Notes: generated by a model from the letters alone, not told the origin. Positions 21,261-57,141 are shown, counted from the stretch's first letter. The stretch: DNA of 62,789 bases from Desulfurivibrionaceae bacterium (GCA_046484585.1 JAWOIQ010000025.1:1-62789); one strand, 5' to 3'. Translations and numbers: made by a program.

Positions 21261-21300
21261 CCTGAAACTGTGAGCGCACGATAGCAGTCACATGTTCAGG
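21261..21300. repeat. 40-bp palindrome resembling fused family B termini
   Basis: The sequence is CCTGAAACTGTGAGCGCACGATAGCAGTCACATGTTCAGG. Confidence 0.4.
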
Positions 21301-21315
21301 AAAAACGGATTGATT

Positions 21316-21531
21316 ATGAAGATAACCATCAAATATTGCGCGGCCTGAAACTATCTCCCCAAGGCTTCCAGTCTGGAAGACGCCATTAAAGAGGAGATAG
21401 ACGCGGAAGTAGATCTTGTTGCAGGTTCGGGCGGGATATTCCTGGTATCCGTCGACGGCAGGGAGATATTTTCCAAGAAAAAGGAGGGCCGTTTTCCGGA
21501 AGTTTCGGAGATAATGGCCAAACTGGACTAA
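21316..21531 (+). CDS. SelW/Rdx-family selenoprotein (Sec encoded by TGA 21346-21348)
   Basis: Translation is MKITIKYCAA-U-NYLPKASSLEDAIKEEIDAEVDLVAGSGGIFLVSVDGREIFSKKKEGRFPEVSEIMAKLD. It has a CxxU redox motif and GSGGxF and EGRFPE blocks, with a hairpin just downstream of the UGA. Confidence 0.8.
21363..21384 (+). promoter_or_regulatory. candidate bacterial SECIS hairpin
   Basis: GGCUUCC-AGUCU-GGAAGacGCC starts 15 nt after the UGA. The apical loop contains GU. Confidence 0.6.
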
Positions 21532-47810: not shown

Positions 47811-48368
47811 TCAAGGCCGCTGCAAACCGCCCTCGACCCGGCTCCTCACCTCGGGGCCGGCCAGAATCTCGACCAGCTTCAAGGCGAAATCCATTGCCGT
47901 CCCCGGTCCCCTGGAGGTAATGATCCTGCCGTCGACCACCACCGGCTCCTCCCGGTAATCGATGCCGCTCAAGCACATCCCGTCCAGACAACCAGGATAG
48001 CTGGTCGCTTTTTTCCCCTCAAGGATCCCGGCCTTGCCGAGGACCATCGGCGCCGCGCAAATCGCCGCCACATAGAGATCCCGCCTTGCCCGCTCACGAA
48101 CCAGATCAATTATCCGCTCGTCCGCCATCAGATTATCGGTTCCGGGTTGGCCGCCGGGCAGAACGACAAGATCGTACTCTTCACGCAAGGCCCGATCAAG
48201 GGTCACATTGGGAACGATCACCGTGCCCCGGGCGCATTTAATCGGGACTAATTCGCCGGGTGCGGCAATTACCACCTCAAAACCGGCCCGCCTGAAGATA
48301 TTAACCAGAGTAACCGCCTCGAGCTCCTCACTTCCTTCCGCCATTGGAATCAACACTTTTACGGCCAT
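47811..48368 (-). CDS. DJ-1/PfpI family protein
   Basis: AAICAAP nucleophile-elbow Cys motif, 185 aa. Confidence 0.85.
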   Translation of the reverse strand: MAVKVLIPMAEGSEELEAVTLVNIFRRAGFEVVIAAPGELVPIKCARGTVIVPNVTLDRALREEYDLVVLPGGQPGTDNLMADERIIDLVRERARRDLYVAAICAAPMVLGKAGILEGKKATSYPGCLDGMCLSGIDYREEPVVVDGRIITSRGPGTAMDFALKLVEILAGPEVRSRVEGGLQRP

Positions 48369-48650: not shown

Positions 48651-49487
48651 ATGGATAACCGTTATCTGAAGAACATCATCCGCCAATTTCTGGCAGAGGA
48701 CATAGGCCAGGGCGATATTACCAGCGAACCGATATTTGATCCGGATCAGCGCAACAAGGCCTTTTTCGTGGCCAAGGATGAATTCATTTGCGCCGGCCTG
48801 ACCAGTATTGCCCCGATGGTTTTCAAATGCCAGAACGAAAACATCCTATGCGAGGGAATCGGCGACGGGACCATGGTAAAGAAGGGCGACACCCTCCTGA
48901 CCGCCACCGGGCCGATCCTCGATCTCCTCAAAGCGGAAAGAGTGACCTTGAACCTTGTGCAACGGTTATGCGGCATCGCCACCCTGACTAATAAATATGT
49001 AAAAACAGTCGAAGATCTGCCGGTCTCGGTGGTGGACACCCGCAAGACCACCCCCGGCCTAAGGTCCCTTGAAAAATACGCGGTCCGGGTCGGCGGCGGC
49101 CATAATCACCGGATGAGTTTAGCCGACGGCATCCTGATCAAGGACAACCATATCGAGGCCTGCGGCTCGCTCATCCTGGCGGTGGAAAAAGTCAGGGCCC
49201 AGGCCCCCCATACCCTGAAGGTGGAAGTAGAGTGCGAGAATCTTGAACAGGTCGGGGAATGCCTGGAGTGCGGGGTGGAAGTGATCATGCTCGACAATAT
49301 GGCACTCGATGAAATGCGCCTGGCGGTAGAACTTGTCAACAGCAGGGCAATAGTTGAGGCTTCCGGCGGAGTCAGGCTCGACAACATCCGGGCGATCGCC
49401 GAAACCGGGGTGGACATAATCTCGGTGGGCGCCCTCACCCACTCCGCCCCGGCCTGCGATATCAGCATGCGGCTGATTTCGGCCTGA
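48651..49487 (+). CDS. nadC: nicotinate-nucleotide pyrophosphorylase (carboxylating), paralogue 1
   Basis: ERVTLNLVQRLCGIAT, VDTRKTTPGLR and IMLDNM motifs. Confidence 0.9.
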   Translation: MDNRYLKNIIRQFLAEDIGQGDITSEPIFDPDQRNKAFFVAKDEFICAGLTSIAPMVFKCQNENILCEGIGDGTMVKKGDTLLTATGPILDLLKAERVTLNLVQRLCGIATLTNKYVKTVEDLPVSVVDTRKTTPGLRSLEKYAVRVGGGHNHRMSLADGILIKDNHIEACGSLILAVEKVRAQAPHTLKVEVECENLEQVGECLECGVEVIMLDNMALDEMRLAVELVNSRAIVEASGGVRLDNIRAIAETGVDIISVGALTHSAPACDISMRLISA

Positions 49488-49574: not shown

Positions 49575-50177
49575 CTAGATGATTAAAGGCGCCGGCGATC
49601 CGGAGGCCAGCAGTTCCGTCAAACGTTCGGCGGACTGCACCCCGGCCGCCAGCACCGTCCCTTCGGAAACAAAGGCCGGCACCGCCTTGACCCCGATATT
49701 CATCGCCTCCTCCTCATCGGCCACCACCTGAAGGGTGAACTCATGACCGGCCAGCGAGTTCTTAAGGGCCTCGCCGTCCATCCCCAGATCAACAGCCAGC
49801 TTCACCAGCACGCCGATCTTGTTGATATCGAGATCGAATTGGAAAAAGGCCCTGAAAACGGCGAAATGGAATTCGGCAAACCGGTCATAGGTCCCCGCCC
49901 ACTTGGATGCCTCATGGGCTCTCCGGGAACGGGTCTGGATCGACGGCAACCTCATTTCAATCCCCATCTTTTCCGCCAGGGGATAGACATGGTTTCGCCA
50001 GGCCGAGGTCAGGTAATCGCCTTGCGGGTCAAGGAGTTCCACGGGCTCGGGCCGCAGCTCAAAGGCCCGCCACCGGACCATGAATTCGGGGTCCCGGCTG
50101 GTGAGTTTCGCGAGAGCCGGCTCCGCCAGCCAACAGAACGGTCAGAGATAGTCGGAAAAGACGTCAAGAATCTTCAT
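49575..50177 (-). CDS. DsbA/FrnE-like thiol-disulfide oxidoreductase selenoprotein (Sec at TGA 50142-50144)
   Basis: An in-frame extension of the track ORF gives MKILDVFSDYL-U-PFCWLAEPALAKLTSRDPEF-MVRWRAFEL... The UxxC lies where DsbA-family proteins have CPWC. A GGAGAG SD sits 4 nt before ATG 50177. Confidence 0.75.
50096..50131 (-). promoter_or_regulatory. candidate SECIS hairpin of the DsbA-like gene
   Basis: GGCUGG...CCAGCC outer stem with an inner GGAG-CCGG-CUCU stem, starting 10 nt after the UGA. Confidence 0.45.
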
Positions 50178-50209
50178 GATCTCTCCAGGGAACATAGCGC
50201 CCGCAAGGA

Positions 50210-50473
50210 TTACTCATTTGCAGGATTGATTGGGGTTACGGCCCGGCCAGGGTATTTTGAGCGCTTTTTGCGTAAAACTTCTATATGCCTCATCTCGCCG
50301 CACTTAGGGCAAAAGGAGATGACGCCGCTGTTTTTCCCAACCCTTTTTTTGAAAAGAACCTGATGACATTTACCACAAAAAACGATTTCGCATCTGTTAC
50401 ATCTGATAAAGTCGGATTTGTGCGAACAAGTTAAAAAATAAGAATTAAATCGCGCTGAGGTCATCTCGCTCAC
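50210..50473 (-). CDS. small zinc-ribbon protein
   Basis: CNRC...CGKC...CPKC motifs, 87 aa, 33 nt upstream of the DsbA-like gene. Confidence 0.45.
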   Translation of the reverse strand: MSEMTSARFNSYFLTCSHKSDFIRCNRCEIVFCGKCHQVLFKKRVGKNSGVISFCPKCGEMRHIEVLRKKRSKYPGRAVTPINPANE

Positions 50474-50950: not shown

Positions 50951-53104
50951 ATGATTGCTGGCAATGTATTCGTGGAAATAGCCGCTATTTTGGGACTTGC
51001 GACTTTGACCGGAATCATAGGGCAGAAATTGCGGCAGCCATTGGTCATCATGTTTTTGGCAACGGGCATTCTGGCCGGTCCTTCGCTTCTTGGCATCATA
51101 CACAGTTATGAGCAGATTGAGCTTCTGGCTCATATCGGCATAGCCCTTTTGTTGTTTATCGTTGGGCTTAAACTCGATCTGAATCTGATTCGAACCACCG
51201 GTCCGGTTGCCTTGGCGACTGGCCTTGGACAGATCGTTTTTACGTCGGTTATCGGATTTGTCATTGCCATTGCCATGGACATGTCATATCTCAGTGCGGC
51301 TTATGTTGCGGTGGCGCTTACTTTTTCAAGTACGATCATCATCGTAAAGCTCCTGTCCGACAAAAAAGAAATCGACTCTCTTCATGGGCAGATTGCTCTT
51401 GGATTTCTGATTGTTCAGGATATCGCCGCCATTTTGGCTCTGGTCGGCCTGACGACATTGGGGGCATCTGTTAGCGGGGAGGGTTCGGGATATCTCTCGT
51501 TTCTGATGATCGGCGCAAAAGGTGTGGGACTGTTGGGCGCGGTTGCCCTGCTGATGAAATATGTCATTCCTTACCTGACCCAGCGTCTCGCGCATTCGCT
51601 GGAACTGTTGACTCTATTCGCAATCGCATGGGCGGTCCTTCTCGGAGCGGGCAGTGAGCTGCTGGGATTCAGTAAGGAGGTCGGCGCATTTCTGGCCGGT
51701 GTCTCACTGGCGTCCACTGCCTTCAGGGATTCGATTGGCGCGCGGCTCACAGGCCTTCGGGATTTTCTTCTTCTGTTTTTTTTCATCGATCTTGGAGCAC
51801 GATTGGATTGGTCCATGGTGGGCTCGCAATTGGGCACATCGCTTGTTTTCTCCATCTTTGTGCTCGTCGGCAACCCGCTCATTGTTCTGATAATCATGGG
51901 AGTCATGGGATATCGCCGCCGCACCAGTTTTCTCGCCGGTCTCACGGTGGCCCAAATCAGCGAATTTTCGCTTATTGTAGCGGCCTTGGGGCTGAGTATC
52001 GGCCACATTACCGAAGAAACGATGGGGCTGATCACCCTCGTGGGTGTTGTGACCATATTCCTGTCCACCTACATGATCCTCTATTCCTATCCGCTTTATC
52101 GTGCTCTATCCTCCCCATTGAAGATTTTCGAAAGGCGCAATCCTTACCGGGAGGCGGACATAGACACCTTCACGGAAACGGGAGCAGTCGACGTCATTTT
52201 AGTGGGATTGGGTAATTATGGCAGCGGGCTGATGGAAAACCTTCTCCGGCGAAAAAATGCCATCGTGGGGATCGACTTCGACCCCGGCACTTTGGATATG
52301 TGGCGCAAGAAAGGCGTGCCTGTTCTTTACGGGGATATGGCTGACCCGGAGATGCATGAGCAATTGCCGTTGAAAAAGGCACGATGGGTTATCAGCGCCG
52401 TTCGTTCCAAAGAGATGAATTTGGCACTTATCCATAATCTCAAGAAGGACGGTTATACTGGAAAGGTGGCCTTGACGGCGACAAACAGCCAAGAAGCCGC
52501 TGAGTTCGAAAAAGCCGGCGCCAATTTGATATTTCGGCCTTTTCAGGATGCAACGGAACAAGCGGCCGACGCGTTGACTTATGCGATGGACTTCCTTCCG
52601 GAAAGCGTTGATTGGCCTGTCTCATTTCTCGAGTTGCGTATTCGTTCGGATGCTTCGGCCGCCGGGCAGACCATACGAGAACTCCCGTTATCGGCTTTGG
52701 GAATATCTATTCTGGCGGTCAGTCGAGGAGGGCGCACCTTTTATGAACCGAAGCCGGATTTCAGGATTTTCCCGGCCGATCGGCTACTCCTTATGGGAAA
52801 TCCGGCTGGCTTGAAAGATGCTGAAAACATACTGAATCAGCTTGAAGCGCAGAGAGACTTAGAAGACACAGACCGCTTTGACATCGCCGAAATCAAGGTG
52901 GCGGAGGATTCGGGCTTTTCAGGCAAGTCTTTGGCAGAGCTTCATTTTCGACAAACGTTCGGCACGACCCTGGTCGGCATACGCAGAGGCCCGAATCAGA
53001 TCACGACGATCAACCCTGCGGAGCGCCTGCAGGGGGGGGATTGTCTAATCGTTATCGGCAAGTCGAGCGCTATCAAAAAACTCAAGAACCGGGCCCCTGT
53101 TTAG
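50951..53104 (+). CDS. CPA2 (Kef-type) cation:proton antiporter with RCK N and C domains
   Basis: N-terminal 12-13 TM Na_H_exchanger region, a TrkA-N region (VILVGLGNYGSG) and a TrkA-C region. Confidence 0.85.
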   Translation: MIAGNVFVEIAAILGLATLTGIIGQKLRQPLVIMFLATGILAGPSLLGIIHSYEQIELLAHIGIALLLFIVGLKLDLNLIRTTGPVALATGLGQIVFTSVIGFVIAIAMDMSYLSAAYVAVALTFSSTIIIVKLLSDKKEIDSLHGQIALGFLIVQDIAAILALVGLTTLGASVSGEGSGYLSFLMIGAKGVGLLGAVALLMKYVIPYLTQRLAHSLELLTLFAIAWAVLLGAGSELLGFSKEVGAFLAGVSLASTAFRDSIGARLTGLRDFLLLFFFIDLGARLDWSMVGSQLGTSLVFSIFVLVGNPLIVLIIMGVMGYRRRTSFLAGLTVAQISEFSLIVAALGLSIGHITEETMGLITLVGVVTIFLSTYMILYSYPLYRALSSPLKIFERRNPYREADIDTFTETGAVDVILVGLGNYGSGLMENLLRRKNAIVGIDFDPGTLDMWRKKGVPVLYGDMADPEMHEQLPLKKARWVISAVRSKEMNLALIHNLKKDGYTGKVALTATNSQEAAEFEKAGANLIFRPFQDATEQAADALTYAMDFLPESVDWPVSFLELRIRSDASAAGQTIRELPLSALGISILAVSRGGRTFYEPKPDFRIFPADRLLLMGNPAGLKDAENILNQLEAQRDLEDTDRFDIAEIKVAEDSGFSGKSLAELHFRQTFGTTLVGIRRGPNQITTINPAERLQGGDCLIVIGKSSAIKKLKNRAPV

Positions 53105-56313: not shown

Positions 56314-57141
56314 TTACTGGGAAATTCTCATGCTGAAATCAACGGATGGCGCTGAATGGGTCAATGCCCCTGAAGAAATAATATCAACCCCGATTTGGGC
56401 AAGCGCTCTCAAATTCTTTTTGGTGATCATGCCTGAAACTTCAACCAGCGCACGGCCGGAAATCAACTTTACCGCTTCCCGTATCTGGTCATGATTCATA
56501 TTGTCCAGCATGATGACCTCCGCTCCGGAATTCAGTGCATCCCTTACCTGGTCCATGTCGGAAGTTTCAATCTCGATCCGGACAAGATGGGAAGTCATGC
56601 CTCGAATCCGCCTCACCGCCTCGGGGATTCCGCCGCATGCTGCGATATGATTGTCCTTGATCAGGACCCCATCGTATAGGCCTGTCCGATGGTTGAACGC
56701 GCCTCCTGTCCGAACCGCATACTTTTCAAGGATTCGCCATCCGGGAGTTGTTTTGCGGGTATCCACGAGACGAACCGGAAGGTCTCCCAACAAATCCACA
56801 TAGGACCGGACATGGGTGGCTATCCCGGATAAACGCTGAAGAAAATTCAACGCCGTCCGTTCACCCGTTAAAAGAGTTCTCAGGGAGCCTTTGATTTCAA
56901 GAATCGTCGTCCTGTCTTCTATGCGATCCCCATCTTCATGTTCCGAAACTAATTCAACATTGGAATCAAGAATTGTAAAAACCTGCTTCGCGACATCAAG
57001 CCCTGCAAGGATTAAAGGCTCTTTGGCAACGATGATGCCCCGGCCCTTCATCTCCTTTGGGATCAGGTTGTCGGTGGTTATATCTCCGGGACCGATGTCT
57101 TCCCGAAGAGCGAGATTGATCAAATGTCTGGTGCTATGCAT
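56314..57141 (-). CDS. nadC: nicotinate-nucleotide pyrophosphorylase (carboxylating), paralogue 2
   Basis: ERTALNFLQRLSGIAT, VDTRKTTPGWR and IMLDNM motifs. The stop TAA abuts the rhomboid ATG. Confidence 0.9.
   Translation of the reverse strand: MHSTRHLINLALREDIGPGDITTDNLIPKEMKGRGIIVAKEPLILAGLDVAKQVFTILDSNVELVSEHEDGDRIEDRTTILEIKGSLRTLLTGERTALNFLQRLSGIATHVRSYVDLLGDLPVRLVDTRKTTPGWRILEKYAVRTGGAFNHRTGLYDGVLIKDNHIAACGGIPEAVRRIRGMTSHLVRIEIETSDMDQVRDALNSGAEVIMLDNMNHDQIREAVKLISGRALVEVSGMITKKNLRALAQIGVDIISSGALTHSAPSVDFSMRISQ

Follow-up and report, generated by a model that had tools for sequence, protein, structure and literature searches.

The window—by which we mean the whole analysed stretch of 62,789 nucleotides—carries on its minus strand a gene for a DsbA-family protein whose reading frame is crossed by a single in-frame TGA. 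A conventional ORF listing starts this gene at an internal Met and gives a protein of 168 residues; upstream of that Met the same frame stays open to a further ATG, with the one TGA as its only interruption. Read through, the frame yields 200 residues with the N-terminus MKILDVFSDYL-U-PFCW; the joined product begins MKILDVFSDYL-U-PFCWLAEPALAKL, and the stretch across the predicted selenocysteine (Sec) position is ILDVFSDYL-U-PFCWLAEPALAK. U12 and C15 are the only Sec or Cys residues in the protein. An earlier reading made from the sequence alone had placed the ORF start at the internal Met, described the frame as open to the upstream ATG bar one TGA, and proposed this joined N-terminus; the translation bears out all three, and the coordinates of that reading are all correct. 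That sequence-only reading also described a GGAGAG Shine-Dalgarno element 4 nt before the ATG: the element is present, but the spacing is 3 nt. Relatives have purine-rich runs in the same place, while the rest of their upstream sequence is unrelated. A summary of the features discussed here is given in Table 1.

Table 1. Features of the window discussed in the text, with coordinates counted from its first nucleotide.
Feature	Coordinates	Strand	Remarks
SelW/Rdx-like selenoprotein gene	21292-21531	plus	CAAU motif; UGA 21346-21348
DJ-1 family glyoxalase III gene	47811-48368	minus	TIGR01383, 174 bits against a cutoff of 131; two genes downstream of the selenoprotein gene
nadC, first paralogue	48651-49487	plus	adjoins the selenoprotein gene downstream; convergent
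FrnE/DsbA-like selenoprotein gene, predicted full CDS	49575-50177	minus	ATG 50177-50175, TAG 49577-49575; 200 sense codons including UGA as Sec codon 12
Conventional ORF from the internal Met	49575-50081	minus	168 aa
Antisense ORF	49743-50363	plus	206 aa; overlaps the selenoprotein gene
CCAGCC, 3' arm of a long-range pairing	50096-50101	minus	competes with the conserved hairpin for GGCUGG (50131-50126)
Optional lower-stem extension of the predicted SECIS	50105-50139	minus	50139-50133 with 50111-50105; weakened here by GAA-to-AAA (E24K)
Predicted bacterial SECIS core	50115-50131	minus	7-bp stem, 50131-50125 with 50121-50115; GGA apical loop 50124-50122
In-frame UGA, predicted Sec codon 12	50142-50144	minus	first (nucleophilic) position of the U-P-F-C redox motif
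GGAGAG, Shine-Dalgarno-like element	50181-50186	minus	3 nt 5' of the ATG; read from sequence
Cys-rich zinc-ribbon-like ORF, 87 aa	50210-50473	minus	ends 32 nt upstream of the selenoprotein start
Promoter-like site	50529-50500	minus	upstream of the 87-aa ORF; weak evidence
Kef-type cation/proton antiporter gene	50951-53104	plus
Tandem-Usp gene			like the Kef-type antiporter gene, on the far side of the selenoprotein gene from the glyoxalase III gene
nadC, second paralogue	56314-57141	minus	full length, as is the first; about 7 kb apart

Relatives of the gene were collected in two ways. A protein search returned 763 homologues, and we describe the composition of the best 120 of these; 80 related loci came from a DNA-level scan that took one genome per species, and they belong to Desulfobacterota, Pyrinomonadaceae and other Acidobacteriota, Binatia, and others. 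The nearest of the 80 is locus L001, from a Desulfobacterales metagenome-assembled genome (MAG), at 93% identity. Two metagenome loci, L085 and L100, contain unrelated short repeats, YLCPFCWC*, that matched the CPFCW DNA pattern (twice in L085); they are not family members and were disregarded.

The codon at the Sec position is TGA at 77 of the 80 loci and TGC at the other three. In close relatives the start ATG holds the same position, and the 11 codons ahead of the TGA differ synonymously, so that the encoded peptide is preserved. When all Sec loci are compared over codons 7-11, 174 differences are synonymous and 37 non-synonymous. The upstream peptide FSDY(L/V) is conserved and the DSBA domain is complete downstream of the UGA, with sequence similarity in the related loci stopping immediately 5' of the ATG. 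TGA is also an ordinary terminator here, ending 21 of the 41 Pfam-supported genes in the window, where it is the commonest stop. The near-universal retention of the TGA, the coding evolution upstream of it and the normal use of TGA as a stop together rule out a sequencing error, a pseudogene or a reassigned code. Nor is the in-frame TGA a chance occurrence—this follows from the 77 TGA and three TGC codons, from the CPFCW homologues, and from a DSBA match that needs the extension. Two outcomes that would have told against the sequence-only reading were not seen: orthologues do not all start at the internal Met and lack a CxxC, having instead the ATG, 11 conserved codons, TGA or TGC, and PFCW; and a sequencing error at 50142-50144 is excluded by 77 independent assemblies with the same TGA.

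Among the best 120 of the 763 protein homologues, about 19 are full length and read FSDYVCPFCW, with Cys at the position of the UGA. Seven more (P0012, P0023, P0093, P0097, P0100, P0105, and P0113) carry Trp there, as FSDYVWPFCW; these are probably TGA codons translated by pipelines that use genetic code 4 or 25. The remainder of the pattern is truncation: about 90 of the 120 are calls that start at assorted Met, Leu, or Val codons just past the motif, such as P0001 (168 aa) and P0005 (184 aa, named 'DsbA family protein').

With the UGA read as Cys, the product matches Pfam DSBA (PF01323) with E=6.8e-29 and 101.4 bits against a cutoff of 25.6. Residues 4-190 cover profile positions 2-190 of 191, and they do so only with the N-terminal extension; hence the extension is integral to the domain. 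Among PDB sequences the best match is to FrnE of Deinococcus radiodurans (5cnw/5cp1; residues 4-198, E=1e-13), in which SDIACPWC aligns column for column with SDYL-U-PFC of the window protein. U12-P-F-C15 thus falls on C22-P-W-C25 of FrnE, and on the CPFC of the full-length homologues. The sequence-only reading had proposed a DsbA-family (FrnE/HCCA-isomerase-like) β1-CxxC-α1 signature with Sec in place of the first active-site Cys (UxxC), and had suggested alignment to DSBA homologues as a check. The Pfam match runs end to end, FrnE is the best relative, Cys forms place their CxxC exactly at the UGA, and the first Cys of CPFC/CPWC stands opposite the UGA, so both parts of the proposal hold. 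No NCBIfam model claims the protein; the best match reaches 40 bits against a 190-bit cutoff.

For the fold we used a structure model of a full-length Cys homologue, P0008, which is 53% identical to the window protein; all fold results refer to this model. It has a pLDDT of 92.2, with a strand at residues 4-10 and a helix from residue 15. Ranked against PDB structures, FrnE comes first (TM 0.87), followed by SCO1869 and then by HCCA isomerase, kappa-class glutathione transferase (GST), and YjbH. The Foldseek TM range is 0.85-0.88 for FrnE (5co3/5cp1) and 3gl5, and classical periplasmic DsbAs score lower, at 0.55-0.70. The window protein itself begins at once with strand 1 (MKILDVF...), so that a signal peptide would have no space, and we take it to be a probable cytoplasmic protein.

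D. radiodurans FrnE (DR_0659; 5cnw/5co3), a DsbA-family disulfide reductase/isomerase of the cytoplasm, is the best match in both sequence and fold. The likeness extends to a CP(W/F)C-type site at the N-terminus of helix 1 right after strand 1, the probable lack of a signal peptide, and a cis-Pro loop (V166-P167 in the window protein). The two differ in that the window protein has Sec for the first Cys, is 200 rather than 260 residues long, and shares only about 25-30% identity. They differ also in the C-terminal CxxxxC tail that regenerates the D. radiodurans enzyme: the motif is absent from the window protein, whose whole sequence holds only U12 and C15. The FrnE homologues of S. roseofulvus and D. 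maricopensis likewise lack CxxxxC (PMC8945050). Given the missing tail, we propose that the window protein probably depends on an external reductant. HCCA isomerase, kappa-class GST, and YjbH share the same overall fold (Foldseek TM 0.75-0.82 for the P0008 model) but stand below FrnE and SCO1869, with 16-20% identity. Such proteins rely on glutathione or serve as adaptors and mostly have no CxxC dithiol; the UxxC of the window protein, in contrast, is complete.

Selenoproteins of this kind have been described before. In 2005, Zhang, Fomenko & Gladyshev (PMC1088965) introduced DsbA-like selenoproteins (COG2761, UxxC, a SECIS whose apical loop has G) as a new family of nine sequences from the Sargasso Sea, and a 2026 review lists 'DsbA-like protein form 1' (PF01323, UxxC; PMC13188914); published example sequences are AACY01178397 and NIP15863.1. 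The window gene shares with this family the PF01323 domain, the UxxC motif, a SECIS-like hairpin directly past the UGA with G in its apical loop, and widespread Cys homologues; nothing essential differs, the subfamily identity being read from COG, Pfam, and motif. The window gene is therefore a mis-annotated new member of a known selenoprotein family whose motif and mechanism are already described, and it leaves general knowledge of selenoproteins unchanged. One difference lies in frequency—Sec forms dominate the sampled clade (77/80), whereas in the papers of 2005-2006 Sec forms were the minority in most families.

Directly past the UGA lies the candidate SECIS, a hairpin whose core starts 10 nt after the codon and is encoded by codons W16-L-A-E-P-A21. 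Bacterial SECIS (bSECIS) elements are expected to have a loop of 3-9 nt, a stem of 4-16 bp, a G in the first two loop positions, a distance of 16-37 nt from the UGA, and a minimum free energy (MFE) of at most -7.5 kcal/mol (PMC13188914). The window hairpin fits every one of these, with a GGA loop that begins 17 nt past the UGA, 7 bp, and -10.3 kcal/mol; upper and lower stems together reach -13.1 kcal/mol. It thus agrees with the bSECISearch consensus in loop, stem, spacing, and stability, no Rfam family matches it, and binding by SelB is predicted. A GGCUGGC-GGA-GCCRGCC hairpin, 10-11 nt past the UGA and often with a lower stem, is found in nearly all Sec-form loci. In an ungapped alignment of 73 Sec-form genes, pairing in the upper helix extends to 95.5% of cells, against 25-53% for slid partners; for the lower helix the family-wide figure is 63.8%, its four outer pairs being best kept.

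A covariance search for a SECIS, which the sequence-only reading had proposed, gave no support: Rfam yielded no SECIS match, either at the gathering threshold over the whole window or at E<=10 over 50040-50200. Since Rfam also misses the SelW-like gene, this test is uninformative for bacterial SECIS elements. The predicted SECIS of the window gene is not known to resemble the SECIS of E. coli fdhF in sequence.

Covariation within the stem was no better in the 73 sequences than in column shuffles, a result that is explained by the conserved peptide WLAEPA that the stem encodes. Covariation being uninformative here, we used synonymous-site entropy and a Cys-form control in its place. Among Sec forms the codons of the hairpin are almost frozen: Ala18 is GCG in 69 of 69, Glu19 is GAG in 73 of 73, Ala21 is GCC in 62 of 66, Leu17 is YUG in 70 of 73, and Pro20 is CCA or CCG, both of which pair with U, in 69 of 71. 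Other conserved columns of the same genes have third-base entropies of 1.5-1.95 bits for Ala and 0.7-1.0 bits for Glu. The control comprised 11 distinct Cys-form contexts, found among the genome loci and in a metagenome pattern scan; of the 20 stretches that the scan gave, about half were unrelated CPFCW proteins. In Cys forms GAG occurs in only 2 of 11 (Fisher p=1.5e-10, the counts ignoring phylogeny), and GCA, GAA, CCC, and changes of the Glu to Lys, Met, or Val are all found. A fully paired stem is present in 60 of 73 Sec forms and in none of the 11 Cys forms, again by counts that ignore phylogeny. The frozen synonymous sites and the contrast between Sec and Cys forms show, at the level of sequence comparison, that a constraint on the RNA acts on this hairpin. 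The sequence variants found among Sec forms still make a hairpin: eight P-S variants retain 7 bp by bulging out one A, and in three WLGEPA variants the register moves, which brings in a new C24-G28 pair.

The local hairpin is not the most stable structure predicted for the window gene. In the MFE fold, GGCUGG pairs instead with CCAGCC further downstream (-19.6 kcal/mol, pair probability 0.87), giving a UCUC apex without G. This long-range arm is shared, among the relatives, with L001 only, and the MFE fold is no better than that of shuffled sequence (z=0.14). The sequence-only reading had drawn a nested hairpin at 50096-50131, beginning 10 nt past the UGA; the MFE fold is indeed so drawn, but the conserved SECIS has its 3' arm at 50121-50115. 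That the long-range pairing is thermodynamically favoured over the conserved hairpin (-19.6 against -10.3 or -13.1 kcal/mol) is a real caveat for the efficiency of Sec insertion in the window gene. The conserved local hairpin is nonetheless the better SECIS candidate, and it would form first as the mRNA emerges. A further register, proposed by RNAalifold (columns 18-23 with 29-34, loop GGCGG), was rejected: in the window it has -6.6 kcal/mol and a 14-nt spacing, and so fails two of the bSECIS criteria. It may still occur as a minor conformer, and it is the register that the three WLGEPA variants adopt.

The window holds a second candidate selenoprotein gene, of the SelW/Rdx type. It matches Pfam Rdx (E=6.7e-19) and the NCBIfam SelT/SelW/SelH (seleno)protein model NF041051 (92.4 bits against a cutoff of 88), and downstream of its UGA is a hairpin with a GUC apical loop 22 nt past the codon. 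Both matches agree with the sequence-only reading, which had named it as a second thiol-oxidoreductase selenoprotein. No selA, selB, selD, or tRNA-Sec gene lies within the 62.8-kb window, and tRNA-Sec was not found in 60 related loci. The two recoded genes, together with the taxon (Desulfobacterales), lead us to infer that the organism decodes Sec. Public sequencing runs contain no more than 14% of the words of the locus. Deltaproteobacteria have been reported as the most selenoprotein-rich bacteria (PMC1794560).

We consider it highly probable—roughly 90%, a figure that applies to the explanation as a whole—that the locus is a real gene for a UxxC oxidoreductase of the FrnE/DsbA type, namely a FrnE-type protein of the cytoplasm that belongs to the thioredoxin-fold DsbA family, with Sec inserted at the UGA as the nucleophilic residue of its CxxC. 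Translation would begin at the upstream ATG; at the UGA, a SelB-type elongation factor with Sec-tRNA(Sec) would be recruited by the hairpin with its GGA loop, Sec would be inserted in place of termination, and the ribosome would run on to the TAG to give the 200-residue protein. The most likely activity, judged from D. radiodurans FrnE, is that of a reductase/isomerase, with the product reducing or isomerising disulfides of cytoplasmic proteins through a U12-C15 selenenylsulfide.

Other readings of the TGA have to be weighed against this one. Gene callers and GenBank records (for example P0001 and P0005) annotate the truncated form and TGA is a normal stop codon in the window genome, as would be expected if the TGA were a true stop, with the locus either a pseudogene or the source of a functional 168-residue protein made from the internal Met. 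Such a protein, however, would lack the first β-strand and the whole DSBA active site, and the truncated calls begin at differing, non-homologous codons, as artefactual starts do; moreover, the TGA is kept at 77 of 80 loci in several phyla, with conserved and mostly synonymous coding sequence on both sides. Genuine termination at this codon is therefore very unlikely. A sequencing or assembly error is scarcely credible: a single base separates TGA from TGC or TGT and the source is probably a metagenome assembly, but the same TGA stands in the independently assembled, 93%-identical MAG and at 76 other loci, and the frozen hairpin codons are typical of Sec forms, not of Cys forms.

The UGA might also be read through as something other than Sec—by a near-cognate Trp or Cys tRNA, or under a reassigned code—with the hairpin doing no more than stimulating read-through. 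The seven database homologues with Trp at the Sec position would fit such decoding, as would the failure to find Sec machinery in the window. Against it, TGA ends 21 of the 41 well-supported genes in the window, so the code is not reassigned and codes 4 and 25 are rejected; the 'W' forms are then most simply understood as gene calls made under those codes. The position, moreover, is that of the catalytic Cys of a CxxC, a classic Sec/Cys pair at which Trp would abolish redox activity. The hairpin fits a SelB-type bSECIS, since its small apical loop carries GG and is correctly spaced, and the window contains a second gene, with a CxxU motif, from a canonical selenoprotein family. We regard non-Sec read-through as improbable, and prefer Sec insertion at this UGA.

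The surroundings of the gene say little about its partners. The 87-aa ORF upstream has two CxxC pairs (CNRC...CGKC and CPKC); its Pfam zinc-ribbon matches all fall below threshold, and no family is assigned. It is kept beside the selenoprotein gene in L001 only, at 87.5% identity. It is possibly co-transcribed with the selenoprotein gene, and it might be a redox partner or a regulator. When 13 window proteins were compared with the 80 loci, common neighbours (NadC and the zinc-ribbon ORF) appeared only in the near-identical MAG L001; without a conserved operon, no partner or substrate can be drawn from synteny. Beyond these neighbours, the glyoxalase III, tandem-Usp, and Kef-type antiporter genes form a loose stress/electrophile-response cluster, an arrangement that is not conserved in the other loci. 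The window also has two full-length nadC (quinolinate phosphoribosyltransferase) paralogues; by tblastn, the L001 nadC copy is 91% identical to the first and about 61% to the second.

The hairpin sequence is remarkably uniform across distant taxa. An RNA of about 17 nt, UGG YUG GCG GAG CCR GCC, is preserved almost unchanged in Desulfobacterota, Acidobacteriota (Pyrinomonadaceae), Binatia, and other phyla, which suggests a strong shared constraint, horizontal transfer, or some binning contamination. The 17-18 nt core (alignment columns 19-36, in L001-L080) is also found in Methylomirabilota, Gemmatimonadota, Verrucomicrobiia, and Burkholderiales MAGs and in bins labelled Rubrobacter and Saccharimonadales. 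At the protein level, E19 is invariant in all 73 Sec forms and drifts to Lys, Met, or Val in Cys forms. One tentative reading, which we hold to be possible though rather doubtful, is that this FrnE-like clade is unusually 'Sec-fixed', with a SECIS that sits within the sequence of the active-site helix and determines it. If true, the RNA element rather than protein function would fix part of helix 1, and either the SelB recognition sequence would be common across phyla or the gene and its SECIS would have been transferred horizontally more than once. The strength with which the SECIS seems to fix codons and residues of the active-site helix across phyla, together with the dominance of Sec forms in the clade, is the only mildly novel angle on the gene. 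For practical use, the contrast between Sec and Cys codons offers a clean, reusable computational signature of a coding-region SECIS where covariation fails.

The gene also has value for annotation, since it is systematically truncated in public databases—the approximately 90 clipped entries among the best 120 hits have no active site. The missing NCBIfam model leaves the redox function invisible to automated pipelines and explains the truncated 'DsbA family protein' annotations; the Trp-translated entries are probably a second type of mis-annotation beside truncation. Correcting the window gene would add one selenoprotein to a Desulfobacterales genome and, with the SelW-like gene, would mark the organism as a Sec user. 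The SelW-like gene, too, would be missed or truncated by ordinary ORF calling. At the FrnE-like gene the overlapping antisense ORF is longer than the truncated sense ORF, and a gene caller that prefers the longest ORF would choose the wrong strand.
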